DNA of 64,000 nt from Candidatus Argoarchaeum ethanivorans (GCA_004193545.1 RPGO01000033.1:3841-67840); one strand, 5' to 3'. Shown: positions 3,199 to 59,798, counted from the first letter of the stretch. Program-made: numbers and translations. Notes: generated from the sequence alone by a model not told the origin.

Positions 3199-3224
3199 AA
3201 CGTATAGGAAAGTATAAACGCAAC
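3199..3224 (+). repeat. 26-nt motif AACGTATAGGAAAGTATAAACGCAAC (copy 1 of a dispersed family)
   Basis: Near-identical copies occur at 12076-12101 (+) and 22523-22548 (-). It contains a TATA-like GTATAAA about 30 nt before ATG 3252. Confidence 0.6.
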
Positions 3225-3319
3225 CAGATACAAATTAGTTGAAGTGATAATATGAAACAAGAGAGATTACTGCAAAAGGTAATGTCCAGAGGGTTGGGTA
3301 CAGAGATGCTGTAGAACGG

Positions 3320-3691
3320 ATGGCTCAGCAACTGGATATAACTGGTTTTGTCGAGAATCTGAAACCTTACTATGTTAAAATTGTTGCAGAAGGAGAAGAA
3401 GACATTCTCGATGAGTTTATATCTCAGATCCGCATAAAAAAGTTTCCGGTATCTGTCAAGAACCTCGATATCGAGTTCAAAGCTGCAACTGGCAAGTTCG
3501 AGTACTTTGACATTAAGCGAGGTGATTGGAGAGAAGAACTTGGAGAGTGTATGGATGTTGCAGGGACACTGCTTTATAGGTCGGTTGAACTTGGAGTGCT
3601 CAGTGAATCTCGAGTAGAGGTTGGTCGAACTTGGAGAGAATATGCTCGAAAAGCAGGATACTCATACGCACATCCTGGCAGATCTCCGTGA
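3320..3691 (+). CDS. acylphosphatase-like domain protein with a frame-disrupted 5' region
   Basis: The same frame upstream (from 3278) reads GNVQRVGYRDAVERMAQQLDITGFVENL, the acylphosphatase signature. No start codon exists in that frame. ATG 3252 lies in another frame. Confidence 0.55.
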   Translation: MAQQLDITGFVENLKPYYVKIVAEGEEDILDEFISQIRIKKFPVSVKNLDIEFKAATGKFEYFDIKRGDWREELGECMDVAGTLLYRSVELGVLSESRVEVGRTWREYARKAGYSYAHPGRSP

Positions 3692-7893: not shown

Positions 7894-8742
7894 ATGGATA
7901 AATCTAAGATAGGTTCTGCAACTGCTAAAGGTGGATTTGCAAACGAGAGAGTAGTTTGCGAAAAGTTTAACAATTGGAAGAAGGATAAAGAAGCTCAAAT
8001 TTGGCTTAAAATTATGGGATACAATATAAAAAAGATTGATTTTGTAAATGCAATCCATATTCCAACCAGAATTAAGAGAAGTGATCTAGAGAAATTCGGA
8101 ATAAGTGAAGAAGATTATGAAGATCTGATGCGATTTAAGAAAGCAGATGCTCAAATCAAGATAATAATTGCAATCGGAAATATATTGAAAATAGAGAATC
8201 TATCTTTAAAAAAGGCCAATTCTGATGCCAATTATAATCAGGTAGACAAGAGACGGGTCGATTCGTATCAAGAGATGTGGGGTTTTGATGAGGATATAGC
8301 CCTTGGACTAAAGCTTTTTACAGGAGAGTTAAATCCTGAATTGTATCCCGAACTTATAGGAAAAAGAGAACTGCGAGATAAGAGAAGGTTGTTTTTGGAC
8401 GAATTGCCAGAATATATTAGAGCCAAAATTTTGAGTTTTTTTAAAGATAACAGGATAATTGTTGTAAATGATATTCTAAAAGGTAGAGGTGGGCTTTCAG
8501 CAGATTGGATGCTTGTTACCAGATACAATAAACAAGACCAGACTACTACATGGATATTTAAGGACATTAACACTGCTATGAATCTCTTTGGCGGTGGTGA
8601 TGTAAGAATTTCTCCCAAACGGAGTTTATATATCGGTAAAATCACAATGCAAAGGAAAGGTGGAACTCCTGATCCAACAAAGTTACAATTCAAGATTAAA
8701 CCGTGTGAACTATTTAAATTGGAGTGTAGGGATGGAAGTTGA
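7894..8742 (+). CDS. type II restriction endonuclease (HinP1I/MspI-like by recollection)
   Basis: It overlaps the downstream DNA methyltransferase by 11 nt. The N-terminal GSATAKGGFANE..FNNWKKDKEAQIWL and C-terminal ITMQRKGG..LQFKI segments resemble that REase family from memory; this is unverified. Confidence 0.6.
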   Translation: MDKSKIGSATAKGGFANERVVCEKFNNWKKDKEAQIWLKIMGYNIKKIDFVNAIHIPTRIKRSDLEKFGISEEDYEDLMRFKKADAQIKIIIAIGNILKIENLSLKKANSDANYNQVDKRRVDSYQEMWGFDEDIALGLKLFTGELNPELYPELIGKRELRDKRRLFLDELPEYIRAKILSFFKDNRIIVVNDILKGRGGLSADWMLVTRYNKQDQTTTWIFKDINTAMNLFGGGDVRISPKRSLYIGKITMQRKGGTPDPTKLQFKIKPCELFKLECRDGS

Positions 8743-9526
8743 CAAAGTATATTTAGGCGACTGCATTGAAATTATGAAAAAACTTCCTGGAAAGTCCATA
8801 GATTTGATCTTCGCAGATCCACCATTTAATATCGGGGTAAAGTATGATAAATACAATGACAATCTATCTTATGAAGAATATTATGATTGGTCAAAAGAAT
8901 GGATATTAGAGACATGCAGATTATTAAAAAAACATGGGTCGATATATATTGCGATTGGAGATGAATTTGCAGCTGAAATAAACATAATTTTGAAACAGAC
9001 CGGATATTACTTTAGAAACTGGATAATATGGTATTACACCTTTGGTCAAAATCAGCGAAAAAAATTTAATCGATCGCATACACATATCTTGTATTTTACT
9101 AAAGACAAAGAGAAGTCTGTATTTAACTCCGATGATATTCGAGTTCCTTCAGCAAGACAACTTGTTTATAAAGATAAAAGGGCAAATCCCAAGGGAAAAA
9201 TTCCAGATGATGTGTGGCAATTCTCAAGGGTATGTGGGACATTTAAAGAACGGTTAGGAACTCATCCGTGTCAGATGCCTGAATCTTTGCTAGAACGGAT
9301 AATCCAGGTAAGTTCTAATGAATGGGATAAAGTTCTGGATCCTTTTGGTGGGACAGGAACAACATCAGCAGTTGCTAAACGATTAAAAAGACATTTTATA
9401 ACGATGGAAATATCAGAAGAATACTATAATCTTATATTAAAAAGGTTGGATGGTAAAGTTGCAGAGATAAAAAGAGATGTGAAGGTTGAATCGGAAAAGC
9501 AGATGACATTACTTGATATGGCGTGA
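8732..9526 (+). CDS. beta-class N6-adenine/N4-cytosine DNA methyltransferase
   Basis: Motif IV DPPFN sits near the N-terminus and motif I LDPFGGTGTT near the C-terminus. The start ATG 8732 gives MEVDKVYLGDC. Confidence 0.85.
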   Translation: MEVDKVYLGDCIEIMKKLPGKSIDLIFADPPFNIGVKYDKYNDNLSYEEYYDWSKEWILETCRLLKKHGSIYIAIGDEFAAEINIILKQTGYYFRNWIIWYYTFGQNQRKKFNRSHTHILYFTKDKEKSVFNSDDIRVPSARQLVYKDKRANPKGKIPDDVWQFSRVCGTFKERLGTHPCQMPESLLERIIQVSSNEWDKVLDPFGGTGTTSAVAKRLKRHFITMEISEEYYNLILKRLDGKVAEIKRDVKVESEKQMTLLDMA

Positions 9527-40267: not shown

Positions 40268-41638
40268 ATGCCACTGACACTACTTGAGTGTGATGTACCA
40301 ATACCTGAACGTGAAAAGCATACCTACATCAAGAAGTCTGGCGAAACGATTATTCCAAGATGCAATGTCCAGACAACGCCAGGAGACCTGACCGAACGCG
40401 GCTGCACGTATGCAGGGTGTATGGGTGTCGTTGGAGGACCTGTCAAGGATGTGATACATCTCGTACACGGTCCGATCGGCTGTGCCTACTACACATGGGG
40501 CGGAGGTCGCAGGCAGAATCTTTCAGATAACACCGGGTTTCACAGAAAGTACTGTTTCTCAACCTCAATGCAGGAAGCAAATATCATCTTCGGCGGTGAG
40601 AAGAAGCTGTACAATGCGATTCTCGAGGCTTATGAGAGGTTTCCTGAAGTAAAAGGCGTATTCGTCTATGCAACATGCGTGATTGGTCTCATCGGAGACG
40701 ACATCGACAAGGTTTGCAAGAATGCATCAAAGGAGATCGGAATCCCAGTCATTGCGTTCAGTTGCGAAGGATTCAGAGGTGTCAGCCAGTCACTCGGGCA
40801 CCACATCGCAAACGATACGATCTTTGAGAAGATCGTTGGCACAAAGGAACCGGATTATCTCACACCGTATGACATCAACATCATTGGAGACTACAACATC
40901 CAGGGCGATCTTTGGGTCATTAATCCACTCTTTGAAGCGATGGGACTCCGGATAATCGGTACGTTCACAGGAAACGCATCGATTGACGATATTGCCATGG
41001 TGCACAGAGCGAAGTTAAATGTGATGCACTGCCAGAGGTCCACCCCGTACATCTGCCAGCTTATGGAAGAGAAATATAATCTTCCGTACATGCCAGTCTC
41101 TCTATTCGGAATCGAGCAGACATCAAAAGCCCTTCGTGATGTAGCAGCCTTCTTTGGTCTCGAAGAAAAAGCAGAAAAGGTAATCGAGGAGGAAGTCTCC
41201 AAGATACTTCCTGAGATGGAGTATTATAAAGAAAAACTCACCGGAAAGCGAGTATTCATCTACCAGGGTGCGCCGCGTGCATGGCACTGGATCAAACTGA
41301 TGGAGGAACTGGGAATGGAGGTAATAGGCGCTGCAACGACATTTGGGCACAGCGATGATTATGAGAAGATCATCGAACGGATTGGTGACGGCGCTCTTGT
41401 AATCGACAACCCGAATTCTGTTGAGCTAAAGGAGATTCTAATCAAATACAAGCCTGATCTCTTTATCTCAGGATTGAAAGAGAAGTTTCTCTCATACAAG
41501 CTCGGAGTGCCGTTTGTAAATGGTCACTCGTACGAGAGAGGACCTTATGCGGCATACAGCGGATTTGTGAAATTTGCACGGGATATGTACACAACGATCA
41601 ATCATCCAGCGTGGAAACTAGTGGAGGGAAGAGCATGA
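40268..41638 (+). CDS. nifD: nitrogenase molybdenum-iron protein alpha chain NifD
   Basis: P-cluster Cys contexts are GCTYAGC, GPIGCAYY and ATCVIGLIGDD. The homocitrate/FeMo-co region is CEGFRGVSQSLGHHIAND. The FeMo-co ligands lie in MHCQRS and NGHSYE. Confidence 0.9.
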   Translation: MPLTLLECDVPIPEREKHTYIKKSGETIIPRCNVQTTPGDLTERGCTYAGCMGVVGGPVKDVIHLVHGPIGCAYYTWGGGRRQNLSDNTGFHRKYCFSTSMQEANIIFGGEKKLYNAILEAYERFPEVKGVFVYATCVIGLIGDDIDKVCKNASKEIGIPVIAFSCEGFRGVSQSLGHHIANDTIFEKIVGTKEPDYLTPYDINIIGDYNIQGDLWVINPLFEAMGLRIIGTFTGNASIDDIAMVHRAKLNVMHCQRSTPYICQLMEEKYNLPYMPVSLFGIEQTSKALRDVAAFFGLEEKAEKVIEEEVSKILPEMEYYKEKLTGKRVFIYQGAPRAWHWIKLMEELGMEVIGAATTFGHSDDYEKIIERIGDGALVIDNPNSVELKEILIKYKPDLFISGLKEKFLSYKLGVPFVNGHSYERGPYAAYSGFVKFARDMYTTINHPAWKLVEGRA

Positions 41639-42942
41639 GCCAAACAAAGACAAAGAGGTCGGTAACGATTAATCCTGGCATGTTGTGCCAGCCAATTGGT
41701 GCGATGCAGGCAGTACTTGGCGTACATGCCGCAATACCGCTCGTGCACGGATCGCAGGGATGCGCTGCCTATCCAATGCGGATGTTCAACCGACACTTCG
41801 CAGAACCAGCAGAGATTGCATTAAGTTCGCTTGGTGAAGATGCTGCAGTCTTCGGGGGAGCAGACAATCTCGTTAAGGGAGTACACGCTCTTGCGGCACG
41901 AAGACATCCCGAATTAATTGCGGTCGTCACGACCTGCCTTTCTGAAACAATCGGAGATGATGTTGATGGCATCCTTAGGAAGGTCGATCTGCCAGTGAAA
42001 CTGGTACCGATGCACACGCCGAGTTATGTCGGTTCGCATGTTACAGGATACGACAACGCGGTAAAAGCACTTGTAACACACCTTGCAGAGCAGACAGGAC
42101 CTAACAGTAAGATCAATGTCACTGTCGGGCTCCTTGATCCCGGGGATATCAAGGAACTCAAGAGCATGCTTGGAATGATGCGGGTCAAAGCGATTATCTT
42201 AACCGATATCACAGGTGCCTTTGATGCACCGTTGATACTGCCAAGACCGCCATTCCCGGATGGCGGAACCACGGTTGGAGAAATCAGGGATACAGCAAAC
42301 TCGATCGGCTCAATAGCCCTCTCTAAACACGCAGGCGGAGCGGCTGTAAAATATCTTGAAATGAAGCACAAGGTGCCGATGATTGCAGGTGCATGTCCAA
42401 TCGGTGTTGAAAATACTGATGCGTTCCTTGATAACGTGAGTCAGCTCACAGGAAGACCAGTTCCGGATGAACTGCGAAAGGAGCGGGGAAGGCTCATCGA
42501 TGCGATCATAGATGTGCAGTTCAAGGTTGCACAGAAGAAGGTTGCGGTCTTTGCAGACCCTGATGTCGCATCCGGGATGGCACGGTTTGTGCATGAACTC
42601 GGGATGGACCCCGTAATCGTTGCAACCGGTACCGAGAGCAAAGAGTTTGTAAAGGATGTACAGGCGATAGCAAGCCAGACCGGGCACGAGATCGAGATTA
42701 TCCTGGGATGCGACCTCTATGAGTTGCACGAGGCGATAAAAAGGGTTGGTGTTGATCTGTTGATGGGAAACACGCACGGGAAGAGTATTGCAGATGATGA
42801 AAAAATCGCTTTTGCAAGACTCGGGTTTCCTGTCTATGACCGTGTTGGCTACCAGAGGATACCGATTATCGGATACAACGGCGGGATCAATCTTGTCGAC
42901 CGGATCGCGAACGCGATTCTGGATCACGCGGACGCGGCGTGA
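41635..42942 (+). CDS. nifK: nitrogenase molybdenum-iron protein beta chain NifK
   Basis: The ATGA start overlaps the nifD stop. P-cluster Cys contexts are HGSQGCAAY, TTCLSETIGDD and the P..SY.GSH region. Confidence 0.9.
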   Translation: MSQTKTKRSVTINPGMLCQPIGAMQAVLGVHAAIPLVHGSQGCAAYPMRMFNRHFAEPAEIALSSLGEDAAVFGGADNLVKGVHALAARRHPELIAVVTTCLSETIGDDVDGILRKVDLPVKLVPMHTPSYVGSHVTGYDNAVKALVTHLAEQTGPNSKINVTVGLLDPGDIKELKSMLGMMRVKAIILTDITGAFDAPLILPRPPFPDGGTTVGEIRDTANSIGSIALSKHAGGAAVKYLEMKHKVPMIAGACPIGVENTDAFLDNVSQLTGRPVPDELRKERGRLIDAIIDVQFKVAQKKVAVFADPDVASGMARFVHELGMDPVIVATGTESKEFVKDVQAIASQTGHEIEIILGCDLYELHEAIKRVGVDLLMGNTHGKSIADDEKIAFARLGFPVYDRVGYQRIPIIGYNGGINLVDRIANAILDHADAA

Positions 42943-43223: not shown

Positions 43224-43262
43224 TGTACAGGCTCCGTACTTAAGTCCGGGGTTTGGTGACTT
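43224..43262 (+). repeat. partial copy (3' 39 nt) of the 63-bp element, ending GGGGTTTGGTGACTT
   Basis: It aligns with 7767-7805. It marks the switch from nif-flank sequence to AT-rich sequence. Confidence 0.6.
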
Positions 43263-43617
43263 CGATGGATGAACCCATGCTCCATTAGCGAAATAAATTC
43301 CAAATATCTGTTGTTGAATTCTTTATATGTGTTAAAAAGAATGAAAAAATTCCCAGAGAAACATCAAAAAAATAAAATTTGTGCCTCATTCAAAAAATTG
43401 CTAAATAGCACCAATTTACTAAAGAAAGTGTATTAAAAAAGCTATTTGATCCATCCATTCAACTTTTGCGGAAATTCAGACATCTAAACAATATAATAGA
43501 GAGCTTTCAGAGTTATGATCTTAGAGAGGGGGTACAAGTATATCCATAGTTGGGGAAAGTAATATTTATCTTAATGCAAGTAAGTTACATTATTTGAGAA
43601 TATGGAATAGGGGTAAT

Positions 43618-44370
43618 ATGAGGTTTTTTTTATATGCATCGAAGGCAAAAATAGATATGTTATACTCACAAATAAGTAATAGTCATATTGAAACTACATC
43701 TACGAAGAAGTTGAATACAAAAATCGCTTCAATAGAGAGTAAAAAGATAAGTAAAACTATTAATGATATTTATTTAAAAATTCCATTTATAGAGAGACAA
43801 TTAGAAAAAAATCAACAGGTCATAGATATCGAAAAATTAGATAAACAGAATATAAAACCTTATCTAAATAATACAGGAATTTGGAATGTTTCACCCATTA
43901 AAAAAAAGTATGTTTTGGATGAACAAGTTGAGGAAGTTGCACCCACGGTTTATTGTCTCTTTAGACAATACCAAAATGTTCTCTACTTTTTAATTGGTTC
44001 ACCATTAAACTTAACTGGACAGCATGGTATCACGCCGAATTATACTTATGTATCTCCCACATGGACAGCTGATGAATATATCATGAATCTCGTTGATTCA
44101 GGATATTCAGACAAATTTTATTTTGATAGGATTTTGCCGGCATTGCTTGGGTATTGCTCAAAAGTATGTTCCTTTCTACCGCAAATGCACATTGAGCTTC
44201 TCTTTAAAGTGTATCACGTTTACAGCATTAACGATGAAGTGTTAGATGAAGCAGTTTCACATTATTCTATCGAAAATTTTAAAGATAAGCCAAATTTTCT
44301 TGTTATTGGATCTCCAATATTTGTATGTTTAGCTCAACCAAAAATTCAAGGAAGAAGATTTAATGAGTGA
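43618..44370 (+). CDS. hypothetical protein (island gene A)
   Basis: ATG 43618 gives MRFFLYASKAKIDMLYSQI... It is 250 aa with no motif I can assign. Its stop overlaps the next start (ATGAGTGA). Confidence 0.55.
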   Translation: MRFFLYASKAKIDMLYSQISNSHIETTSTKKLNTKIASIESKKISKTINDIYLKIPFIERQLEKNQQVIDIEKLDKQNIKPYLNNTGIWNVSPIKKKYVLDEQVEEVAPTVYCLFRQYQNVLYFLIGSPLNLTGQHGITPNYTYVSPTWTADEYIMNLVDSGYSDKFYFDRILPALLGYCSKVCSFLPQMHIELLFKVYHVYSINDEVLDEAVSHYSIENFKDKPNFLVIGSPIFVCLAQPKIQGRRFNE

Positions 44371-44815
44371 AGTAGGAAGTGTCTATGCGTGGCAAGGTGA
44401 AATAGATGGTAATCAACTAATCGGAATGCAGTATTTAAGTAAGTCAAGTTTTGGTATTTTCATCGCAAAAGAAGCTAAAAGAATAGTTATTGGTTTTCTG
44501 GATGACGATAAAGTTATTGGATATCATTATTTACTAAAAAAAGATATAAAGAATCTGCAAACATTTTTTGAAGGCAATACTGAAATAAAAGAGTTAACGA
44601 AATTCGAGGAAAAACGGCCTATAGGCATAATGCTGGGATACGAACTTCAGTTAGTGAATACATCAGAAAAGTCTATACGCATGTATGCAAATTTACCAGT
44701 ATTTGATGATCAAGTACTGTTTGCTCTGACAGAATGTAATAAAGAATTCTGCTGTGTAGCATTTAATCTCAATGAATTAATATCGATAAAAGCACTTATA
44801 GATAGTTTTAATTGA
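44363..44815 (+). CDS. hypothetical protein (island gene B), translationally coupled to gene A
   Basis: It is 150 aa with an 8-nt overlap with gene A. No recognisable motif. Confidence 0.55.
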   Translation: MSEVGSVYAWQGEIDGNQLIGMQYLSKSSFGIFIAKEAKRIVIGFLDDDKVIGYHYLLKKDIKNLQTFFEGNTEIKELTKFEEKRPIGIMLGYELQLVNTSEKSIRMYANLPVFDDQVLFALTECNKEFCCVAFNLNELISIKALIDSFN

Positions 44816-44922
44816 AATACAACATTAAAGCTTATAACTTTCCTAATAAAAATCCCACGCATGATTTGAAAATAAAAAGCAGACAAACTTACAAAATATA
44901 AAATTTGAGCATCCTCTTGATG

Positions 44923-44953
44923 CCTCCCGTTTCTAGCGGGAGGTCGTGACTTA
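44923..44953 (+). repeat. hairpin plus TCGTGACTTA junction motif
   Basis: CCTCCCG-tttctag-CGGGAGG is followed by TCGTGACTTA. Compare GGGGTCGGTGACTTA at 7792-7806. Confidence 0.65.
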
Positions 44954-45131: not shown

Positions 45132-46964
45132 ATGGAAAATCTAACCAATAAGATAATTATTGAAAGGATAGAAATGGCTTTTGGTAAAAGAATCGTCTTT
45201 TTCGTCGGCGCTGGGATATCAGTTCCCTCAGGAGTTCGAGACTTTAAGAAATTGACTGAAGAGGTTATACAAACGCTTGCAGACGATGAACTTGAAGAGC
45301 TTGAGGAGAAAGATCTTGAAAAGAAAAAGAAGGATTATGAATTACTCACTGAGAACATTCGGCCTGAGGTCATGTACCAGATGGCGATGGACGAACTAGA
45401 CTCGAAAGTACTTTATTCTTTGGAAATGTTGGAGGGATACGAGCCGAATTATTACCATTATTTCTTGGCAGAGGTTATCAGGCGAGGTAATTGGGTATTT
45501 ACTACAAATCAAGACAATTTGATAGAGGAAGCTTGCAAGAGAAGGGGAATGAAACCGGAGGTAGATTTCAAAACATATTATGGCCGCGGCAATGACGAGG
45601 ATTTCAGAGAATACCTTCGATATATAAATTCTGGGGATATATATAGAGGGTGTATATTCAAGTTGCATGGTAGCATCGAGGAGGATGCAAGGGGAGAAGA
45701 AAAATATAAGACAGTTCGATTTTCACTCCGACAGGTTGGGGAAGGGTTATTTGGACCTAGAAAGGAAGTTCTCGAATATTTCCTTAAGGAATTCGATTTC
45801 TGCTTCATAGGCTACAGATGTAGGGATGACTTTAGCGTGTTCCCTGTGCTTTCAAGTACGAAAAGTGACAAGAATATATTTTGGTCTCGTTTTGATGAAG
45901 GACCCCTTAGTTTATACATTCCAAAAGAAGACAGGCTTCTGTGGGAAACGGAAAAAGAAGAAAATAAACCATTAGATGAGAAGAGGAATTTAGATCTGCT
46001 CAATATAAATGAGGTTCTCTTGCAAAGAGGCAAAAAGTTCGTATTCAGTGGTAACTTAGGCGAATTCATAAACGTTAAGCTGCCCACTCTATTAGGAGTT
46101 AAAAACCTTTCTTTTGATGAAGAAAAAGCAAGGGAAAAAGGAAAGGCGAAGGAAAGTGGGGCTTTCTTCAGATGGGCTAAGAGTAAAGAGAAGTTTGAGC
46201 GGTATCTATTCCTGGGACGTTTATTTGAGCACGCGGGTAAGTTGAATAATGGAATTGAGTCCTGTAGCAAAGCATTAGGCGAGGCAAAGAATGATTTCCA
46301 ACTTATAAGGGCAAAACAGAAACTGGCTGATCTTTACTACAGAAGACAAGAAGGGGATGATGAAGGGGAGGCGAGCAAGCTTTATGAGCAATGTATTAAT
46401 TCCTCTAAGGATCCACTTGAAAGGGCAAGTCTGAAGGCCAGCCTCTCCAATATTCTACGCAGGCGAGGGAAAGATTTTTACTCTGAAGCATATGTGACGG
46501 CAGAAAAAGCAAAAGAAGAATTTGAAACGTATATTATTGAGGGGAAGGGTAAGGGGTTGGATTATGCTAGGTGCTTAAATATTCATGGATTGGCCCTTTA
46601 TAGTATAGGCAAGTTTGAGGAGGCAAGGAAATCCTGTTCAGATAGCATAAATGTAAAGCAAGATTTGGGCGACGTTGATGGGATAGCAGAATCAGAAAAT
46701 GGAATAAGCTTAGCCTTTACCCAGGAGGGTAGAAGGCTTAAAGATCAAGGAAATAAGGAAGAAGCCAAAGATAAATTTTTTAAAGCTATTGAGCATGCAA
46801 GAAGAGCTCTTGATTGTAGGCGAAAGATAGGAAATTTTAGAGGGTATGCTCAGAACAGCCGTAACTTGGCTTGGCCGAATAGCGAGCTGATGAAACTTGC
46901 CTCGAAAGAAGATGAAGACAAGAATACTTCAAAAAAGCAAGAGATGGTTACAAAGCCGGGATAA
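45132..46964 (+). CDS. SIR2-family (sirtuin-like NADase) domain fused to TPR-like repeats; zero-frame product
   Basis: It reads VFFVGAGISVPSG, TTNQDNLIEE and KLHGS. The C-terminal half is helical-repeat-like. No Walker A is seen. Confidence 0.75.
   Translation: MENLTNKIIIERIEMAFGKRIVFFVGAGISVPSGVRDFKKLTEEVIQTLADDELEELEEKDLEKKKKDYELLTENIRPEVMYQMAMDELDSKVLYSLEMLEGYEPNYYHYFLAEVIRRGNWVFTTNQDNLIEEACKRRGMKPEVDFKTYYGRGNDEDFREYLRYINSGDIYRGCIFKLHGSIEEDARGEEKYKTVRFSLRQVGEGLFGPRKEVLEYFLKEFDFCFIGYRCRDDFSVFPVLSSTKSDKNIFWSRFDEGPLSLYIPKEDRLLWETEKEENKPLDEKRNLDLLNINEVLLQRGKKFVFSGNLGEFINVKLPTLLGVKNLSFDEEKAREKGKAKESGAFFRWAKSKEKFERYLFLGRLFEHAGKLNNGIESCSKALGEAKNDFQLIRAKQKLADLYYRRQEGDDEGEASKLYEQCINSSKDPLERASLKASLSNILRRRGKDFYSEAYVTAEKAKEEFETYIIEGKGKGLDYARCLNIHGLALYSIGKFEEARKSCSDSINVKQDLGDVDGIAESENGISLAFTQEGRRLKDQGNKEEAKDKFFKAIEHARRALDCRRKIGNFRGYAQNSRNLAWPNSELMKLASKEDEDKNTSKKQEMVTKPG
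46931..46937 (+). promoter_or_regulatory. candidate -1 frameshift heptamer A AAA AAG, in phase with the SIR2-TPR zero frame
   Basis: The zero-frame codons are tcA AAA AAG. The -1 frame is open from 46916 through 47284. Confidence 0.4.
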
Positions 46965-47284
46965 GCTATTGGGATCGTTTCTATCCTGCACCTGCTACCG
47001 AAAGTGTACTTTTTAGAAATCTTTTAGCTAGGTTGTATATTGATTTTTGCTCTCTGACAGAAGATCAAGAGCAAAAGAAAAGGTGGGCTCAAGAGGTCAT
47101 TCTCATTCCCATGTATGGGGTGATACTTGGAGACTCAAAGAGAAGGCAAAAAGCCAAAGAGGATAAGCGTACGCCTACTGCCGAGCAAAATCTAGAAAAT
47201 ATTAAAGAGATGCTCAAAGAGGTTAATTTAGACTCAGAACAAAAGGAAGCGGAGAGAATGCTCAAGGAGCTAAGAGAGGAGTAA
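46937..47284 (+). CDS. -1 frame continuation of the SIR2-TPR gene (ORF track lists only 47033-47284 from a TTG)
   Basis: It reads ARDGYKAGISYWDRFYPAPATESVLFRNLLARLYIDFCSLTEDQEQKKRWAQEV..., which is helical and repeat-like. Confidence 0.5.
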   Translation, partial: ARDGYKAGISYWDRFYPAPATESVLFRNLLARLYIDFCSLTEDQEQKKRWAQEVILIPMYGVILGDSKRRQKAKEDKRTPTAEQNLENIKEMLKEVNLDSEQKEAERMLKELREE

Positions 47285-47359
47285 GGAATTTCGAAAGTTG
47301 TCTCAAAGCCAAAACTCGAAGAGAATAATAAAACACTTAAACATTATTTGGAAGAGCTT

Positions 47360-47668
47360 ATGTTAAAAATGTTGCCTGAAATTTCAGGGGAATTAATTGC
47401 ACAAGAATCAAAGAGGCTTGAGGAAGTTAAGCAGCTTTCAACACTTGAGAATACAGATATGTTTGAATATCTCAAAAGTATGTTTCTTTTTTCAATATCG
47501 GATTATCGAGAAGCTGTAATAGCAAGTAAATCGGGTGATGAATTTCTTGAAAAGCTGTCCGAATATGTAAAAGATAAATTTTGGAAATTAGAAATTCGCA
47601 ACATGGGAGACGTAATGGTTGATCTTAATCTATCTAGAGAAATACTTGGGCTCAATCCTATTGAATAA
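47360..47668 (+). CDS. hypothetical protein
   Basis: It is a 102-aa ORF from ATG 47360, AT-rich, with no motif. Confidence 0.4.
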   Translation: MLKMLPEISGELIAQESKRLEEVKQLSTLENTDMFEYLKSMFLFSISDYREAVIASKSGDEFLEKLSEYVKDKFWKLEIRNMGDVMVDLNLSREILGLNPIE

Positions 47669-48515
47669 ACATTGGCAATAAGATTTGAAAAAAGTGATAT
47701 TTATGCAAATATTGAAGCCTATGCAATTTTGAGTAGATTACATAGTTACGCATATAGAGAATACTTTATCCCACAAACTAAAAGGAATATAAAAACCTGA
47801 GCATCCATCCGATGCCCTATATTTGAGCGAATCGAAATCCGAGGTCGTTGACGTTAAAAGTCTCTGATAAACCGTATGGAAGAATAACCTGTTCAAAACA
47901 TCCATAGCCAACCAACCCCCATGTAAGCTTATGATCCACATTCCGTATCCCCCCAGATGCCCACAAAAATTTAAGCGACCATCAGACACAACAGGGGGTC
48001 TTGATCATGCATGTTAAAAAAAACCATAACCCTCTCTAAAGAACTGGAGAAGTGAGGTGGAAGACCACTTTATAGGCACATCATATTACTCAAATCTCTC
48101 GGACGCCATAAGAGATGGGCTCAGAAAGATTCTTGCAGAGTACAAGAAAAAAAATGAGGTTGAGATTGCTGCAACCCTCTGCAAAGAGGAAGATAACGCT
48201 GCGGGAAGCTGCTGCCATAATGGACGCCCCTGTGTGAAAAACTTCTGGGGAGCTTGGTTGGGGGGGGCTGTGTACCTGGGATACGGAATAGAAGAAACCG
48301 GAAGAGGATCCTGGATGATCACTGTAAGCGATTCCACCCCCTTTCATCTATTTTGGAACGATCAAGCGACCCCATCTTCTTTGATCCATATACGGTCAGG
48401 TCATAATCACAGAGGTGGTGCACCGGGAAGTATTAACAGAAGGAATCGCTTTTGGTGACGGATGCCAATCTTTTTGGAAAAGGCGATTGAGGACTATTAT
48501 ATTAATTTCTGAGAT

Positions 48516-48569: not shown

Positions 48570-48640
48570 ATCCATGATTTAGCGTAACTTAATTTCTTTG
48601 AACATTCAAAGAACATCTTTGATATTACACGATTCAATAC

Positions 48641-49302
48641 AGAGCCTGTCCCATAATTAACATCGTTCCGATACTTTTATCACTCTTCCAGCCATATTAT
48701 GTAATATGGCGTTCATTAGAAGGCTTCACAATCAAAACTGGTTATTTCCCCCAAGTATTTCAGATTTAATCGATGAAGACCATGTTTGCAGACTTGTAGA
48801 TGAAGTAGTGGAGAGCATTGACCTTGGAAATATCGAAGAAAGGTATGATGGCCCTGGCAGTCCAGCGTATCATCCAAAGGTTATGATGAAGCTTCTTATC
48901 CAGGGTACTATCGATGGGATTCGGTCTTCTCGTAGGATTTCCAAGGCAACAAAGGAAAATGTTGTCTATATGTACCTTTCAGACCGATTAAATCCGGATT
49001 TTCGTACGATCTGTAGGTTTAGGAAGGATAATTTAGATGTTATTAAACTTGTTTTTGCCGGGATCATAAAGTTAGCTAGGGGAATGAATATGGTAAACCT
49101 TGGTCATTTGAGCATTGATGGTACGAAAATCAAGGATATTGAAGCGAATACTGTTGAAAATAGATGGTATAATCACACTTCACTCAAGAAACTATGCGAA
49201 AAACTAAGAAAACATGGTCTAATCTCTTGTATTCCATAAGCGAAAGTTTAAGACATAATCCAACTATTCAGCACCATTGAACCCAGTTGTGGGACAGGCT
49301 CT
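48641..49302 (+). mobile_element. internally deleted IS1182/IS5-like element
   Basis: 13-bp perfect TIRs AGAGCCTGTCCCA (48641-48653) and TGGGACAGGCTCT (49290-49302) flank it. ORF 48706-49239 keeps only the N-terminal transposase region (..GSPAYHPKVMMKLLIQG..SSRRI...). Confidence 0.65.
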
Positions 49303-49404
49303 TCATTGCATAGTGGCGCAGACGTGACTTTTCAAAATATAGTGAGGTAAAAAATCACTGGTTTTTTAGATAGTGTCTTACGCAGTAATCAAGATCCTCA
49401 AAAA

Positions 49405-49519: not shown

Positions 49520-49549
49520 TGCGACAGCAATCAAGTGGAGCAACAGGTT

Positions 49550-50593
49550 ATGAAAAACTATATTCAAAAAATCATACAACACGAAAACCTCGCGAGGAAC
49601 GAGGCAGAAGATGCAATGCATAAAATATTCACCGAGGCTACTGATGCGCAGATCTCAGCTTTTCTCATTGCCCTTGCAATGAAGGGCGAAACCATCCAGG
49701 AGATAGCAGGACTTGCAAAAGGTATGAGAAAAGCAGCAAGGACTATACACCCACACGTATCAGGAACTCTCGTAGATACCTGTGGTACTGGCGGCGATTC
49801 ACAGGGTACTATTAATATCAGCACTGCTGCTGCCATAATCACTGCTTCGGCAGGTATACCTGTAGCCAAGCATGGCAATTATTCCATCACCTCAAAATCC
49901 GGTAGTGCGGACCTGCTCAAAACAATGGGCGTAACTATTGACCTGCCACCTGAAAGAGTACAGCAGAATATTGAGAAAACAGGCATCGGCTTCATGCTTG
50001 CACCAGTATTTCATCCTTCAATGAAACGGGTAGCGGGGTTACGAAAAGAAATTGGTGTTCGAACCGTGTTCAATATTCTTGGCCCACTGACAAACCCGGC
50101 AGGTGCTAAAGCACAATTGATCGGATGCTTCAGTCAAAAGCAATGTGTTACTCTTGCAGCATCACTTAATATTCTTGGAACAGAGAGAGCCATGGTAGTA
50201 CACGGGGAAAGACTTGATGAAATTACCACTACAGGCACTACAAACATCACAGAACTTAATAACGGAAAGATTGCAAGCTACACACTAACTCCGGAAGAGC
50301 TTGGAATACAGCGAGCTCTAATCAAAGACATCCGGGGTGGTACGCCTCTCGATAACTCAAAGGATATCATCAGGGTGCTTCTTGGGGAACATGGAGCAAA
50401 ACGTGACATTATAGCTTTAAACGCAGCAGCTTCAATTGTGCTGGGTGGAAAAGCAGAAAACTTCAGAGAAGGTCTTGTTATTGCAGAAAACACCATTGAT
50501 AGCGGCAGAGCCTTGAAAAAACTGAAAGATTTTGTCAAAGAGGCTGGAGATCCTGCCGTACTCGAGGTTTTAATTGATGACAGTTCGTGTTAA
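49550..50593 (+). CDS. trpD: anthranilate phosphoribosyltransferase
   Basis: It reads GTGGD, KHGN...SGSAD and NILGPL.NP. Confidence 0.9.
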   Translation: MKNYIQKIIQHENLARNEAEDAMHKIFTEATDAQISAFLIALAMKGETIQEIAGLAKGMRKAARTIHPHVSGTLVDTCGTGGDSQGTINISTAAAIITASAGIPVAKHGNYSITSKSGSADLLKTMGVTIDLPPERVQQNIEKTGIGFMLAPVFHPSMKRVAGLRKEIGVRTVFNILGPLTNPAGAKAQLIGCFSQKQCVTLAASLNILGTERAMVVHGERLDEITTTGTTNITELNNGKIASYTLTPEELGIQRALIKDIRGGTPLDNSKDIIRVLLGEHGAKRDIIALNAAASIVLGGKAENFREGLVIAENTIDSGRALKKLKDFVKEAGDPAVLEVLIDDSSC

Positions 50594-53690: not shown

Positions 53691-56600
53691 TCATCGAATC
53701 TTACCACCAAACAGAGGACTAACTTCAGCCTGTAAAATCATTAGAGCATCAACAGAACTTACCTTGCCATCTTGGTTTATGTCTGCTTCTGCACTCCATT
53801 TGCCACGTACTGCCATCTCAAGCACACTCGCAGCATCTATACATTTTACTGGTGGTCGTGCTTGTGTATAAACTACAGAAGTCCCCGCTCCCTGTGTATT
53901 TGTATAATAAAGAATACTGTTACTTATTCCAGCACCGACACTATATGGAATATTGTTCAAATAGTTATAATTGAATCTGATTGTTCCATTTTCATATAAT
54001 ATTACTTCAAAAAGGTCCTTGTTGAGACATCCTCCACCACAAGTCCCGGTGTACCAGACTACAACTACTCTGTCTCCTTTATCCTGAACCGATATATTTG
54101 TTTCTTCACCACACGACTGAGACAGATCGCCCCAGAAGGGAGCTATTGCCTCGGTATTTTCTAAATGCGGCGAGCAACAATGGCTCGAAGTATCAGGCAG
54201 GAATGTAATCAATCCATTTGTGCTAATCTGTATGGAACTATGATTTTCACAGAAGAACGTGAAATTCCAGGGAAGGACATAATTATAGGAGCAGTCATCA
54301 CAGCCGGTCCAATTTTGGTCTGGCGTGCTAATCCCATCCCAATCATAAGTAACGTATTCTTTAGTATAAGTATAGCATGGAGGAATTGTCTGGAAATCGG
54401 TGTAGTTGTAATACGAAGTTATGTATGCATCTTCTATGTAATCAAATTGAACACCGGTTGAGGAATTATATAAATACAAATACTTCAGATTGTACGGTCC
54501 ATTGACCCCATTCTGTCGGATTTTAATTCCTTCGAAATTGAGTTGCACGGTTTGACTGCCAGTACTTAAGTAGGTGGTATTGGATTCGTAATCTATTTGA
54601 TATCCAGTAATATCATACAAGTATCCATATACTCTATAACTTCCAGCAGTGGTCACATTCACACCTATATCTAAGGTTAAATTATTATACAATCCACCAC
54701 CATCGGTATCTGTTCCATTATCTGAATAAAACTCGTTGAACTCAGCAGGCAGTCTCTGGAAGTCGGTGTAGTTGTAATATGGGGTGGTGTAAGCATCGTA
54801 TATGTAGTCAAGTTGTGTCCAATCAGTTGTATTGTATAGATATAAATACTTCAAATCAAATGTTCCATTGACCTTATTTTGCCTGATCTTTATACCCTCA
54901 AAGTCAAGTTTAACGGTTTGGTTTCCCGTGTTTAGGTAAGTATAGTTATTTCTCCATTCTATATAGCCTCCATGACAATCATTCAGTCTTCCCTCTACTA
55001 TGTAGTTACCTGCCTTTGTCACATTCACGCCGACATCTATTGTTAAGTAGTTATACAACCCATCGCCATCGATATCGATTCCGTGATCTGAGTAAACATC
55101 ATTAAACTCCGCCGGTGGCTTCTGGAAGTCAGTCCAATCGTAGTCGTTGGTAAAGTACTCCATTTTATCTATATGTTTCCATTCTTCAGTCTCATAAAGG
55201 CTTAACCATGTTCTGAAGCTTCCGTTATGCTCTGTGTTATATATCCTGATTCCGTCAAACTGTAATGTGATATTATGAATGCCAGCATCGAGATATGTTC
55301 TGTTCCAATCACTGTCAATTCCCCACCAGTAACCCTCTTCTTCATCGTAATACTGCAAATTTCCACTTAATTCATATTCTCCCGCCTTTGTGACGTTTAT
55401 CTCTGCTTCTATCACAAGATGGTTGTATAAAGTATCATTATTTGTGTCTAATCCATAGTCACTAAAGTTTCCAGTAAATTCTGGTGGTTTATCAAAATCA
55501 GTATAGCTATAATAGAAAGTAGTATCAGTTGCCCGACCTAACCACCTCCCATTATCCCTATCATATAAATCCATGTCCACATCGAAGTTGCCAGAATCTC
55601 CTGATAGATATATGCTTGGTCCATAGAATTTAAGCGTCACATTGTGCAATCCCTCATTTAAATACGTATGATTTGAATCAGAATCAAGCCATTGTCCTGA
55701 AGGTGCTCTAAGCGAACCGTATAGCTTATAATTACCAGCTTCTCTTACTTCTATTCCTTTTTCAATCACCAGATAATCATAGAGCGAGTTATTGGTTGTA
55801 TCCAATCCATAGTCGTTGAATCCTGATGTGAATTCTGCTGGGGGCTTTTGGAACTCGGTGTAATTGTAATGATTTGTGGTACATGCATAGCGTCTATAAT
55901 CAAATTCCTCTCCGTAAAGAACCGTGAAGTTATTTGTATTCCCTGTTGCTTTTGTTTCTGATTTTTCAAGTGGTGGTACTTCTTTAGCGGGTGGATGCCC
56001 TATTGGTTGTGGTACCGGATATGTATAGGTTACATTGTATAGACGAAGATATTTTAAGTCGTAAGTTCCGTTATACTCATTTTGTCTCAGTTTTATTCCA
56101 TCAAATCTTAATTGAACCGTTTGATTCCCTTTGTTTAGATAAGTCATGTTGCTGTCATAATCTACAGAATTATACGTTCCCTTTTCATACAAAGACCCAC
56201 TTATCCGGTAGTCTCCATCATCTCTTACGTTTACACCCACATTTATCACCAAATAATTATACAATTCATCCTCATCTTTATCCTCTCCGTAATCTGAGTA
56301 TATATCGTTGAATTCTGCACCGGGTGGTTGAAAATCAGTGTATTCGTAGTAAGAAGTAACGTATGCATCATGTCTACTATCTTGCTGAACATAATCATCA
56401 CCGTATAGCCTAAGATATTTTAGATAATAGGGACCGTCAGCTTTGTGCTTACGAATCATAAGTCCATCAAAATTGAGCTTGATTATCTGTGTTCCATTCT
56501 CAAGATATGCAGAGTTTCCTTCGTATGCGATGCTGTTACCATAACTATCATATAGCTCAGCATACCAGCGGTAATTGCCTGATTCTGATACATTCACACC

Positions 56601-59600
56601 TATACCAATAGAAAGATAGTTATGAAACGTGTCGTCGTCTGTATCAATACCTGAGTCATTGTAAACATCTGTGAAGACTGCCGTTGGTAGTTGGAACTCT
56701 TTACTATCATAAGATGATGTGTTATATGCTTTCAATCTCCTATCAATAGTGTTCCAATAGTTATCTCTGAGTCTCAGGTTGGTAAGCGTGTAAGGTCCAT
56801 TCAGATCAACCCTGTGAATGTCTATTCCATTAAAGAGCAATGTTATATTCTGTTTGCCAATTGATAAGTAGGTATTATTTCTTGCATCTGTAATGCAAAA
56901 CCCATTTAATGTCTCTATGTCGCCATACAAATAATAAAAATCTGCTTTGGCAACATTTACACCAACATCTATTGCAAGATAATCATACAATCCATCGCTG
57001 TCCAGATCGATGCCATAATCAGCATATATATCGGTCAAAACCGCTTTGGGCACTTCTACATAACGGGTTGCCAGATTATTTACCACATAACCTTCACCAG
57101 GAACAGGTTCTGCATAGACTGAAACATTGTAGTATCCAACTGCAGTAGGCGTCCAATTGAAATTTATCGTTGTATCCGTTCCGTTTTGGATAAGGGGAAT
57201 GGTTTTGCTGCCTAATTTTGTTCCATCTACCAATAAGTCTATGATCACATCTGTTTCGCTGTTCAACCCGGTATTTGCTATTGTCGCATTTATCTGTGCA
57301 GAAACATTGATTCCAACTATACTGGGTGCATCAATTAATACCTCTATATCATGCGCCTGTGGAGGCAATGTAATCCACCTGAAGATGTTTCTCCCAAAGA
57401 TTCCGTTATCAGCATTATAAATATAAGCTAAGACCTCATCTGAAATTACAACGACTTTTCCATTTCCATATCGTCTCACACCAATCATTTTATTCCCAGC
57501 GACATCTCTTGCAACATCTATGGCTGGCGAATACACGTTAAGAGAATTTACCGGACTAAAGTATATACTTGAAACGCCTCTTGTTATACTATGCATTGAT
57601 ATATCGGTTGATTCGCCGTAGTATCCCTGAATGCCACTGTATGACATGTTAAATACATTTACAATTGTTGGATCTCCCAGTTCATCTCCTTCAACAAAAA
57701 GACCGCCTCCATTTTCAACATACGTAGCAAGAGCACTTTTTTCATTAGTGCTCCAACTACCTCCTCGCTCATCAATCCAAATTGCATCATAATTATTTAG
57801 TAGCGAAAGCGAAATCGGTCCGGAAGTGATATCTGATACAATAAAGCCCTCACTCTTTATGTCATCGATTATGTCAATATACCAGGATGACGGTCTTCCT
57901 CCATGTGTTGTATCATATCCTATTATGTAGATATTTGATAAAACATTTATACCTCTTGATGCCAGATTATTTATCGTGACGCTTTCACCTGGCACAGGTA
58001 CTGCATGCACTGACACATTATACGAACCTTCTTCATAATGTGTCCATGTAAAATTTACCGAGCAATTTGTACCGCTATCCAAACTTGTAATTGTTTTTGT
58101 CGCATCGATTGAACCGTTTATAAGTAATTGCACTGTGATATTGGTTTCGTTGTTCAAGCCATTATTAAATATGGTTGAATTTATCGGTATTGACTTATTT
58201 ATTTTTATATACTCTGGAATAAAAAGCAAACTCACCTTAATATCGTGCTCCTGTGGTATTGCCATAGGTAATGCAAACATCGCATCCACAACACCCCAGC
58301 CATAATTGTTATCAGGTCCTATTATACCTCTATCAACGGCAGTATCCATTAGTATCTCCTTTATCTCAAGCGGCGCTAAATTTGGATTGTATTCGAGCAT
58401 CAGTGCAGCGACGCCAGCAACGTGAGGAGTTGACATCGAGGTTCCACCATGAGGTACATAACCATTTCCAGTATCAGCCTCGGCAGACGTAACATCTACA
58501 CCAACGGCACATACCTCTGGTTTTGTCCTTCCATCAGCAGTAGGACCGCGTGATGAGAAATAAGCAATGTCCATGTAATCGTCAATTGCACCCACTGTAA
58601 TAACTTTTTTAGCGCATGCCGGGTCACCAACCGTTTTACCACCCCACATACCAGCATTTCCAGCAGCAACCGAAACAACTATTCCAGCATCTACGGCAGC
58701 ATCACAAGCCAATGCCATCGGAGTGGTTCCATCATTGTTGTAGTCTCTACCCAAACTCATTGAGATTATCTTTATGCCATAATCATCTTTATTTTGAACA
58801 GCCCAATCTATTCCAGCAATGATCGTTGATTCTCTGCCCGAGCCCCATTTATTAAGCACCTTAACCCCAACCAATTTTGCACCTGGTGCAACCCCCTTAT
58901 ATACAGAGGGGCCACCCGTGCCTGCTGCAATACCAGCACAATGAGTTCCATGCCCATGATCGTCATAAGGATCAGGATAAAAATTAACGAAATCCTTAAA
59001 ACCAATTATCTTTGGATCGCTTGTTGCAAGGTTGTCATCCATATCGTCCAGTGACTCGTGTGCATCGTCAATGCCTGTATCAATCACTGCTATGGTCACG
59101 TTAGACCCTGTAACATTGTATGCGATTCTTGCCGTATCTGCCTTGATTACCGGTACACTCGAATCCAAGTATGCTTGCACCTTATGATCCTCGTAAACCA
59201 TTTTAACATCTTGAATTGTTGATAATTCATACAGTCTGTTACAAGGAATGCTTATTACTGTAGCGTTTATAACAGAATAATCATATTTTATTTCTGCGTC
59301 AATTAACGAATAATCGGTTACGGTGAGATCAACACTTTGGTTATACAAGACAATAACATCAATCTTTAATACATTCTCGCCGCTTGCTTTAAACTCTAAC
59401 GAATCTTCAATTTTATTGTTGTTAGCATCAAAAGCTGTCACATCGCTTTTTCCTGTAATAGAGACATCATCATAAGTAATATCTACAACATCAATTTCGT
59501 TTTCGCTTATGTTTATATCAGAATGGATTTCATTGTGAATGCGATCCACCCAACTTAAATTTGTTACTTCATTTGGTTCTGTTATTCCAAATAGCGATCT

Positions 59601-59798
59601 ATTTTGTCCAGTGTAATGGGCTACTTTATATTTCGCCAATTCATTAGAGCTTTTAACATTCACTATTGTTTGAACATCTTCTTCGGAAACACTTTCCATA
59701 AGTTTTTCTGATGTGTCACTGGCCAAAACTATACTGCTAAATACTGACCAGAGAACTATCAACACCACAATCAAACCAAAAATCCTCATGCTTTTCAT
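53691..59798 (-). CDS. 2035-aa secreted S8 (subtilisin-like) peptidase with CARDB-like domains, seven repeat modules and a C-terminal dockerin-like segment
   Basis: The signal peptide is MKSMRIFGLIVVLIVLWSVFSSIVLA. The triad contexts are VIDTGID, HGHGTHCAG and GGTSMSTPH. The C-terminus reads DINQDGKVSSVDALMILQ. Confidence 0.85.
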   Translation of the reverse strand: MKSMRIFGLIVVLIVLWSVFSSIVLASDTSEKLMESVSEEDVQTIVNVKSSNELAKYKVAHYTGQNRSLFGITEPNEVTNLSWVDRIHNEIHSDINISENEIDVVDITYDDVSITGKSDVTAFDANNNKIEDSLEFKASGENVLKIDVIVLYNQSVDLTVTDYSLIDAEIKYDYSVINATVISIPCNRLYELSTIQDVKMVYEDHKVQAYLDSSVPVIKADTARIAYNVTGSNVTIAVIDTGIDDAHESLDDMDDNLATSDPKIIGFKDFVNFYPDPYDDHGHGTHCAGIAAGTGGPSVYKGVAPGAKLVGVKVLNKWGSGRESTIIAGIDWAVQNKDDYGIKIISMSLGRDYNNDGTTPMALACDAAVDAGIVVSVAAGNAGMWGGKTVGDPACAKKVITVGAIDDYMDIAYFSSRGPTADGRTKPEVCAVGVDVTSAEADTGNGYVPHGGTSMSTPHVAGVAALMLEYNPNLAPLEIKEILMDTAVDRGIIGPDNNYGWGVVDAMFALPMAIPQEHDIKVSLLFIPEYIKINKSIPINSTIFNNGLNNETNITVQLLINGSIDATKTITSLDSGTNCSVNFTWTHYEEGSYNVSVHAVPVPGESVTINNLASRGINVLSNIYIIGYDTTHGGRPSSWYIDIIDDIKSEGFIVSDITSGPISLSLLNNYDAIWIDERGGSWSTNEKSALATYVENGGGLFVEGDELGDPTIVNVFNMSYSGIQGYYGESTDISMHSITRGVSSIYFSPVNSLNVYSPAIDVARDVAGNKMIGVRRYGNGKVVVISDEVLAYIYNADNGIFGRNIFRWITLPPQAHDIEVLIDAPSIVGINVSAQINATIANTGLNSETDVIIDLLVDGTKLGSKTIPLIQNGTDTTINFNWTPTAVGYYNVSVYAEPVPGEGYVVNNLATRYVEVPKAVLTDIYADYGIDLDSDGLYDYLAIDVGVNVAKADFYYLYGDIETLNGFCITDARNNTYLSIGKQNITLLFNGIDIHRVDLNGPYTLTNLRLRDNYWNTIDRRLKAYNTSSYDSKEFQLPTAVFTDVYNDSGIDTDDDTFHNYLSIGIGVNVSESGNYRWYAELYDSYGNSIAYEGNSAYLENGTQIIKLNFDGLMIRKHKADGPYYLKYLRLYGDDYVQQDSRHDAYVTSYYEYTDFQPPGAEFNDIYSDYGEDKDEDELYNYLVINVGVNVRDDGDYRISGSLYEKGTYNSVDYDSNMTYLNKGNQTVQLRFDGIKLRQNEYNGTYDLKYLRLYNVTYTYPVPQPIGHPPAKEVPPLEKSETKATGNTNNFTVLYGEEFDYRRYACTTNHYNYTEFQKPPAEFTSGFNDYGLDTTNNSLYDYLVIEKGIEVREAGNYKLYGSLRAPSGQWLDSDSNHTYLNEGLHNVTLKFYGPSIYLSGDSGNFDVDMDLYDRDNGRWLGRATDTTFYYSYTDFDKPPEFTGNFSDYGLDTNNDTLYNHLVIEAEINVTKAGEYELSGNLQYYDEEEGYWWGIDSDWNRTYLDAGIHNITLQFDGIRIYNTEHNGSFRTWLSLYETEEWKHIDKMEYFTNDYDWTDFQKPPAEFNDVYSDHGIDIDGDGLYNYLTIDVGVNVTKAGNYIVEGRLNDCHGGYIEWRNNYTYLNTGNQTVKLDFEGIKIRQNKVNGTFDLKYLYLYNTTDWTQLDYIYDAYTTPYYNYTDFQRLPAEFNEFYSDNGTDTDGGGLYNNLTLDIGVNVTTAGSYRVYGYLYDITGYQIDYESNTTYLSTGSQTVQLNFEGIKIRQNGVNGPYNLKYLYLYNSSTGVQFDYIEDAYITSYYNYTDFQTIPPCYTYTKEYVTYDWDGISTPDQNWTGCDDCSYNYVLPWNFTFFCENHSSIQISTNGLITFLPDTSSHCCSPHLENTEAIAPFWGDLSQSCGEETNISVQDKGDRVVVVWYTGTCGGGCLNKDLFEVILYENGTIRFNYNYLNNIPYSVGAGISNSILYYTNTQGAGTSVVYTQARPPVKCIDAASVLEMAVRGKWSAEADINQDGKVSSVDALMILQAEVSPLFGGKIR
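54390..57044 (-). repeat. seven tandem, diverged 118-160-aa protein modules inside the protease gene
   Basis: Each module starts F(T/N)D.Y.D.G.D.D.D.LY.YL.I.VGVNV..AG.Y. Each ends ..L(K/T)YL.LY........Y.Y(T)DFQ.PPAE. Confidence 0.8.

Follow-up and report, generated by a model that had tools for sequence, protein, structure and literature searches.

A DUF7019-family gene and its overlapping partner as a candidate two-gene conflict module in Candidatus Argoarchaeum ethanivorans

A pair of overlapping genes, here termed A (AEth_01536) and B (AEth_01537), was analysed in a 64,000-nt stretch of the metagenome-assembled genome of the ethane-oxidising archaeon Candidatus Argoarchaeum ethanivorans (GCA_004193545.1, RPGO01000033.1:3841-67840; the whole stretch is referred to as the window). 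The pair is best read, with a probability of roughly 0.5, as a horizontally acquired, bicistronic two-gene conflict module of the anti-virus or abortive-infection type. This reading was drawn from sequence comparison, and is supported by the pairing of A with the B family (B1) being kept elsewhere, by the exchange of B1 for an unrelated protein (B2) at the same position, by TIR and DUF676 fusions and HEPN-like, hydrolase and HEAT-repeat neighbours among the relatives of A, and by the location of the window pair in a low-GC island together with a SIR2-TPR gene and the remnant of an insertion sequence (IS). The features of the pair, with coordinates counted from the first nucleotide of the window, are as follows.

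43618-44370, plus strand: gene A, 250 residues, isoelectric point (pI) 8.2, a divergent DUF7019-family protein
44363-44815, plus strand: gene B, 150 residues, pI 4.9, founding member of the unclassified partner family B1
44363-44370, plus strand: 8-nt overlap of A and B, ATGAGTGA, with the ATG of B at 44363-44365 and the TGA of A at 44368-44370
43609-43614, plus strand: AGGGGT, 3 nt ahead of the ATG of A, read from the sequence as a putative Shine-Dalgarno-like element
44348-44354, plus strand: purine-rich AAGGAAG within the 3' end of A, 8 nt ahead of the ATG of B, likewise a putative Shine-Dalgarno-like element

Gene A and its family

Both open reading frames (ORFs), of 250 and 150 residues and with the 8-nt overlap, were reproduced as placed by the initial annotation. 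An alternative upstream start for A, TTG at 43594, is given by the mechanical ORF; since every homologue starts at the position of the ATG at 43618 (M-K/R-Y-Y/F-x-Y-x-S), this ATG is the likely start. On the evidence of 20 homologues of A, and of two homologues of B encoded directly downstream of A homologues, A and B are taken to be real genes. Co-translation had been proposed from the overlap; the overlap was confirmed, but the proposal follows from geometry only, and in homologues the A and partner genes lie 9-56 nt apart, with no overlap there. As had been noted by eye, neither protein contains a transmembrane segment (maximum Kyte-Doolittle hydropathy over 19 residues, KD19, about 1.3), and a motif check of both for nucleotide-binding, nuclease and protease signatures (Walker A, HExxH, Rx4-6H and GxSxG) returned nothing.

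A was assigned to Pfam DUF7019 (PF22880) at 49.3 bits (gathering cut-off 22, E-value 7e-13), with residues 2-136 aligned to profile positions 1-123 of 212, so the earlier statement that neither gene could be placed in a family no longer applies to A, and holds for B. Beyond profile position 123, a C-terminal GSPxYxA motif and F196 were found to align across the DUF7019 family in MAFFT, and the Pfam cut-off was also passed by 41 of 43 aligned relatives. A scored below the cut-off of the NCBIfam model SAVMC3_10250 (NF040893; 18.5 versus 50 bits), with a match confined to the N-terminal 72 residues. Compared with DUF7019/SAVMC3_10250 proteins at large, A shares the N-terminal YYxYISxxKVxMLxxQ, central LLxGSPxN and C-terminal GSPxYxA motifs, and differs in that its profile alignment covers the N-terminal 123 of 212 positions and in belonging to a small, divergent subclade, P0003-P0009, in which the DUF7019 gene is accompanied by B1 or B2. 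DUF7019 has no assigned function in Pfam, and no paper mentioning DUF7019, PF22880 or SAVMC3_10250 was found in the literature, in keeping with the earlier view of the pair as undescribed.

The family is rare. Scanned exhaustively with HMMER, 1.84 billion representative proteins yielded 21 at E-values up to 1e-3 (A itself and 20 relatives), and 25 proteins, of which 22 were new, came from a profile search of a 5.8-billion-protein index; in word-index searches A and B each retrieved only themselves. Conserved positions in the resulting alignments comprise an N-terminal motif, YYxY(I/V)SxxK(V/I)xMLxxQ, followed by W89, Y112, LLxGSPxN (125-131), G134, C180 and F196, and a C-terminal motif, GSPx(Y/F)xA, with GSPx(Y/F)V at 231-236 in A. 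Conservation does not extend to any acidic, basic or histidine residue, which would argue against a hydrolase, nuclease or NTPase.

A confident AlphaFold2 model was obtained for A (mean predicted local distance difference test, pLDDT, 84; predicted template-modelling score, pTM, 0.81). Foldseek searches with this model gave nothing in BFVD and no fold match in the Protein Data Bank (PDB), where the best candidates, MCM N-terminal domains (E-value 0.028, template-modelling (TM) score 0.25), were judged to be noise, and profiles built from the A and B alignments retrieved no PDB sequence at E-values up to 10. The model thus points to a new alpha/beta fold for A. Against the system and candidate (PDC) protein models of PADLOC-DB v2, A produced only a spurious GajB match (E-value 0.0028).

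Partner genes, fusions and neighbours in the family

No match to B was found in Pfam, NCBIfam, PADLOC, PHROGs or PDB, and a pattern scan of Joint Genome Institute (JGI) metagenomes found none. Homologues of B, or an unrelated partner in its place, were identified next to close relatives of A as follows.

Contig L003: A relative P0003 (the closest to A, a TIR-DUF7019 fusion), 15-nt gap, then a B1 partner of 169 residues (L003:1699-2208), 39% identical to B, E-value 1e-37
Contig L005: A relative P0005, 9-nt gap, then a B1 partner of 148 residues (L005:876-1322), 30% identical to B, E-value 2e-22
Contig L001: A relative P0004, with a B2 partner at 2741-3376
Contig L010: A relative P0006, with a B2 partner at 1261-1893
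Contigs L007/L008: TIR fusion P0009, with a B2 partner at L007:7186-7842

The pairing of A with B1 is therefore conserved, as read from gene order, in three unrelated contigs (the window, L003 and L005), and the discrete, tightly coupled two-gene module proposed in the initial annotation, for which a survey of homologous neighbourhoods had been advised, was borne out by its recurrence on these two further contigs. Identities of the two proteins run in parallel, with 37% for A and 39% for B at P0003/L003, and 34% and 30%, respectively, at P0005/L005. B2, of 210-218 residues, occupies the same position 15-56 nt downstream of A in three close relatives; the B2 proteins are 42-48% identical to one another, with conserved WExxYDS, GTYFxAxF and SGEDxHxFxxLxPP motifs, and had no match in Pfam, NCBIfam, PADLOC or PHROGs. 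No relationship between B1 and B2 was detected by hhalign. P0007 (L006) is followed by a 105-residue orphan and a weakly HEPN-like ORF, and P0020 has no co-oriented partner, so that the eight close-clade contigs that extend far enough downstream divide into three with B1, three with B2, one with another small gene and one with none. The partners are acidic throughout (pI 4.7-5.9), and the A homologues range from pI 4.75 to 8.3. Downstream of the TIR-DUF7019 and B2 genes, contig L007 also carries two overlapping paralogous genes (7985-8482 and 8479-9078; 22% identity, E-value 3e-8), and this locus may be a four-gene system.

The single-sequence model of B was poor (pLDDT 52), with a predicted beta-rich structure containing two helices, approximately bbbb(b)a twice. 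In Foldseek, its top PDB matches were PUR-alpha repeats I-II (E-value 0.016, probability 0.94, TM score 0.36-0.41, all on the pLDDT-52 model), a weak hint of a PUR/Whirly-like nucleic-acid-binding fold. The predicted order of elements resembles the doubled bbbba of PUR-alpha and Whirly proteins; B differs from these in that neither sequence nor profile searches back the resemblance, and in that hhalign of its N-terminal against its C-terminal half detects no internal repeat. The profile and structure searches recommended in the initial annotation thus yielded a family for A, no fold match for A, and this weak PUR-alpha-like lead for B.

Among the 43 family members, four carry an N-terminal TIR domain (P0003, P0009, P0038 and P0040) and one an alpha/beta-hydrolase fusion. 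The TIR parts match ThsB, SAVED_TIR and other TIR models in PADLOC, and keep an SxWxxxE-like motif, which in our reading holds the TIR catalytic glutamate. On contig L016, a DUF676-DUF7019 fusion is followed by another alpha/beta hydrolase, and the DUF676 serine esterase is fused to at least one, probably two, family members. The hydrolase-fused member explains a match to the PADLOC model DUF626_VIII, a retron type VIII serine esterase model; a link between DUF7019 and retrons on this basis was rejected because the match lies in the fused esterase domain of that one member and not in DUF7019. The accessory protein of type VIII retrons is a DUF676 serine esterase (Mestre et al. 2020, PMC7736814). 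Family-wide, PADLOC matches stem only from fused TIR or esterase domains.

Neighbouring genes extend this picture. P0038 is followed on its contig by TIR-WD40 and TIR-Metallophos genes, CAP12-PCTIR_TIR and PDDEXK_5 genes lie near P0040, and other loci have a DUF4145 (HEPN-like) neighbour (L014), an alpha/beta-hydrolase neighbour (L022), an IS200 transposase with a DUF433/DUF5615 toxin-antitoxin (TA) pair (L021), or a DUF559 endonuclease-like gene (L023). A narrower scan of a genome collection found one Streptomyces locus (S. aureoverticillatus, L013), whose family member matches both the DUF7019 and SAVMC3_10250 models strongly; there, the canonical DUF7019/SAVMC3_10250 gene abuts a gene for a 694-residue HEAT-repeat protein, with stop and start codons adjacent (L013:8001-10766), so the HEAT-repeat gene is a third type of coupled partner. 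The anti-virus or TA context suggested in the initial annotation is upheld in so far as relatives carry TIR and esterase fusions and lie amid TIR, HEPN-like, PD-(D/E)XK and TA genes, but a defence or TA function of the pair is guilt by association. No relative of A or B was found in IMG/VR, phage or plasmid collections, nor any PHROGs match; the homologues are not the housekeeping or viral structural genes that had been considered at the outset. Contigs with homologous pairs have a GC content of 55-60%, compared with about 30% for the window copy, which is consistent with wide horizontal spread. On contigs L017-L019 (e.g. L018:1424-2425), family members have an N-terminal extension that by eye resembles one transmembrane helix (MDARILVAIIGAGATITAALVSAL...), and this suggests that some DUF7019 members may be membrane-anchored.

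The island and its intergenic DNA

The low-GC accessory island begins immediately 3' of nitrogenase-like genes, with a GC content of 0.28-0.34 in A-B compared with 0.47-0.52 in those genes. A nitrogenase alpha-chain homologue lies upstream of the island (within 40268-42942, plus strand; E-value 3e-171 to PDB 9spz_A), and the overlapping next ORF (41611-42942, plus strand) is presumably the beta chain. The features bracketing and following the pair are listed below.

43354-43387, plus strand: first copy of an imperfect 34-nt direct repeat, CAGAGAAACATCAAAAAAATAAAATTTGTGCCTC, located 231 nt ahead of A
44880-44913, plus strand: copy 2 of the repeat, 65 nt past the stop of B and 219 nt upstream of the SIR2-TPR start
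44923-44943, plus strand: GC-rich, perfect hairpin of 8 bp (CCTCCCGt ttc tAGCGGGAGG region), located between B and SIR2-TPR and followed by GTGACTT
45132-46964, plus strand: gene with SIR2_2 and TPR domains, 610 residues, followed by small orphan ORFs and a DUF772 transposase fragment

The SIR2-type neighbour reported initially is thus present. Its product gave weak PADLOC matches to SIR2, ThsA, Dsr1 and LmuA, and its best PDB sequence match was 7uxt_B ('USG protein', E-value 3.6e-4). No homologous pair has such a neighbour, and the SIR2-TPR gene is probably an independent NADase-type defence gene and not a conserved partner of A-B.

The 34-nt repeat brackets A-B with 27 of 34 positions identical (79%), and is AT-rich with a TATA-like core. 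Its identity exceeded that of all 60 local shuffles (60/60; shuffle maximum 26), only two copies are present in the window, and similarity ends at its borders; it may be a duplicated or shared promoter element or a cassette boundary. The hairpin at 44923-44943 may mark a transcript end or a 5' element. Two copies of a hairpin-GTGACTT junction (43224-43262 and 44923-44953) had been proposed to delimit the pair. Both sites can fold (z -1.7 and -2.35), but a repeated (integron/attC-like) junction was rejected: the window contains 9 copies of the heptamer where 8.6 would be expected, a search allowing up to 3 mismatches found no further copy of the 31-nt second site, and nothing is shared in the flanks beyond the heptamer. 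Three plus-strand GTGACTT heptamers fall within the island of about 6 kb (43256, 44946 and 49324), with no other sequence in common. Checks of the intergenic regions detected no Rfam family, no tRNA and no unusually stable leader, which makes a type III TA RNA, a retron non-coding RNA (ncRNA) or a tRNA integration site unlikely.

Downstream of the SIR2-TPR gene, three small plus-strand orphan ORFs (47033-47284, 47348-47668 and 48057-48458) had no significant family match; one of them gave a weak Csm2-like PADLOC match (E-value 0.005) that is probably noise. The DUF772 transposase fragment (ORF 48706-49239) lies inside a 29-nt, 83% complementary inverted repeat (48628-48656 / 49287-49315), and resembles the decayed remains of an IS element where the island ends downstream. 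It is closely followed by a 352-residue ORF (49535-50593) that by eye resembles an anthranilate phosphoribosyltransferase, and a very long ORF of 2035 residues is located on the minus strand at 53691-59798.

Mechanism, competing readings and meaning

If the pair is a conflict module, A would be a non-enzymatic sensor or assembly scaffold, a role suggested by its apparently new alpha/beta fold, the lack of conserved acidic, basic or histidine residues, and the toleration of N-terminal effector fusions. B would be made in fixed stoichiometry with A and bind it as a cognate partner, and would either gate A, whether by inhibiting it or in the role of a specificity subunit, or execute the response once A is triggered. 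Bacterial TIR effectors need oligomerisation, and in the TIR-fused relatives triggering would bring the TIR domains together, so that NAD+ is cleaved; for the archaeal version, which has no TIR, the A-B complex itself would have to provide the output. Since TIR-A fusions retain B1 or B2, we favour a role for B as regulator or specificity subunit over one as the sole effector.

Several points weigh against a conflict module. Retention of B in the TIR-A fusions fits a regulatory B, short of proof; if B is a regulator, the TIR-less window version needs an output that is not yet visible, and either protein could be the effector of A-B. No PADLOC model covers DUF7019, B1 or B2. Rhizobial megaplasmid members appear to be solo genes, and the members on L005 and L006 are flanked by housekeeping genes (Oxidored_q6 on L005, deoxyhypusine synthase and arginine decarboxylase on L006). 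The sample of pairs is small (three with B1 and three with B2), and most homologous contigs are 1-8 kb long, so that a defence-island context can be judged in a handful only.

Comparison with described systems placed A-B, on domain content, in neither a recognised TA family nor a PADLOC system. Thoeris, TIR-SAVED and TIR-STING resemble the TIR-fused relatives (P0003, P0009, P0038 and P0040) in the arrangement of an N-terminal TIR domain, a C-terminal non-catalytic domain and an adjacent small partner. A itself differs from Thoeris in having no TIR domain, and B1 and B2 match no known Thoeris effector. No TIR domain was found by Pfam in seven island ORFs, including A, B and SIR2-TPR, or by PADLOC in the five ORFs scanned, and no signal-binding domain of Thoeris-type effectors (SLOG, Macro etc.) was present, the SIR2-TPR neighbour showing only SIR2_2 and TPR and B no domain; with no TIR and no known effector, A-B is not assigned to Thoeris. 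DUF7019 is not mentioned in the section consulted of a bioRxiv survey of TIR systems (10.64898/2025.12.03.692087). Retron types VIII and XII and cyclic oligonucleotide-based antiphage signalling systems (CBASS) attach the same effector repertoire (DUF676 serine esterase, TIR, HEPN-like) to a constant core; here, that core is DUF7019, and no reverse transcriptase, cyclase or ncRNA was found. By analogy, A-B resembles the many modular defence operons in which a constant core is combined with swappable TIR, esterase or HEPN modules.

The most serious alternative is a classical TA or addiction pair, with A as toxin and B as acidic antitoxin or the reverse, that would stabilise the island in place of a dedicated anti-virus system. 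The pair shares with type II TA loci two small, overlapping, co-oriented genes, one acidic product and a mobile or island context. A is a basic protein (pI 8.2), B (pI 4.9) and all other partners are acidic, the combination of one core family with the unrelated B1 and B2 recalls TA 'mix and match', and mobile elements and IS remnants occur in the surroundings. However, beyond DUF7019 in A, neither gene matched a TA domain in Pfam, NCBIfam, PADLOC or PDB; no toxin or antitoxin fold was recognised, a DNA-binding fold is missing from B, A shows neither a catalytic signature nor conserved catalytic-type residues, and A homologues are not consistently basic. Solo DUF7019 genes also exist, although a toxin gene that has lost its antitoxin should not persist. 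We consider this alternative unlikely. A structural, regulatory or stress-related complex with no part in conflict, in which the immune-type fusions are incidental, would fit the ordinary genes around the L005 and L006 members, the GH92 and GNAT genes in Streptomyces and the lack of catalytic motifs; it sits poorly with the extremely patchy and rare distribution, the variable partners, an atypical composition that indicates horizontal transfer, and TIR, esterase and HEPN-like associations of a kind typical of conflict systems, and is regarded as unlikely.

A three-gene system, in which the SIR2 NADase would act in trans in place of the TIR domain that relatives carry in cis, is suggested by the adjacency of A-B and SIR2-TPR on the same strand, by the shared 34-nt element that precedes both A and SIR2-TPR at a distance of about 220-230 nt, and by the fusion of TIR to A in four relatives, TIR and SIR2 both being NAD+-consuming effector domains. 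It is made improbable by the absence of a SIR2 gene from every homologous A-B1 or A-B2 locus, by the 316 nt, including a strong hairpin, that lie between B and SIR2-TPR, and by the GC content of 0.28-0.34 in A-B versus 0.37-0.42 in the SIR2 gene, a difference that suggests separate acquisition. That the two ORFs are spurious or are decayed pseudogenes in AT-rich DNA can be dismissed almost entirely. The region is very AT-rich, which lends this view weak support: long ORFs form more readily where stop codons are scarce, but AT-rich DNA is in practice rich in stops. Full-length homologues on contigs of 55-60% GC, with motifs and gene order kept, refute it, and the AlphaFold2 model of A is confident.

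The reading of A-B as a two-gene conflict module can be extended tentatively, and with some doubt, to the family as a whole: DUF7019 with B1 or B2 would form a previously unrecognised family of prokaryotic immune modules on a new fold, which senses infection, assembles, and activates a fused TIR or esterase domain or a partner, and the archaeal copy would be a minimal, effector-less-looking version with its killing or blocking activity in a new A-B complex and with B possibly a PUR-like nucleic-acid binder. A-B is, from its sequence, a credible candidate for an undescribed system: the fold of A has so far found no counterpart, and B represents a new partner family. The TIR-fused relatives from bacteria could be approached directly by experiment, since depletion of NAD+ is measurable. 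Since the family is very rare, its impact would lie in mechanistic novelty and not in breadth. If this reading is confirmed, DUF7019 would enter the catalogue of prokaryotic immune and addiction modules as a new sensor or scaffold fold, together with B1 and B2 as new partner families; one Pfam DUF and one NCBIfam family that now lack a function would gain one, and the pair would be a rare case from an uncultured alkane-oxidising archaeon, a member of a group whose virus defence is little explored.

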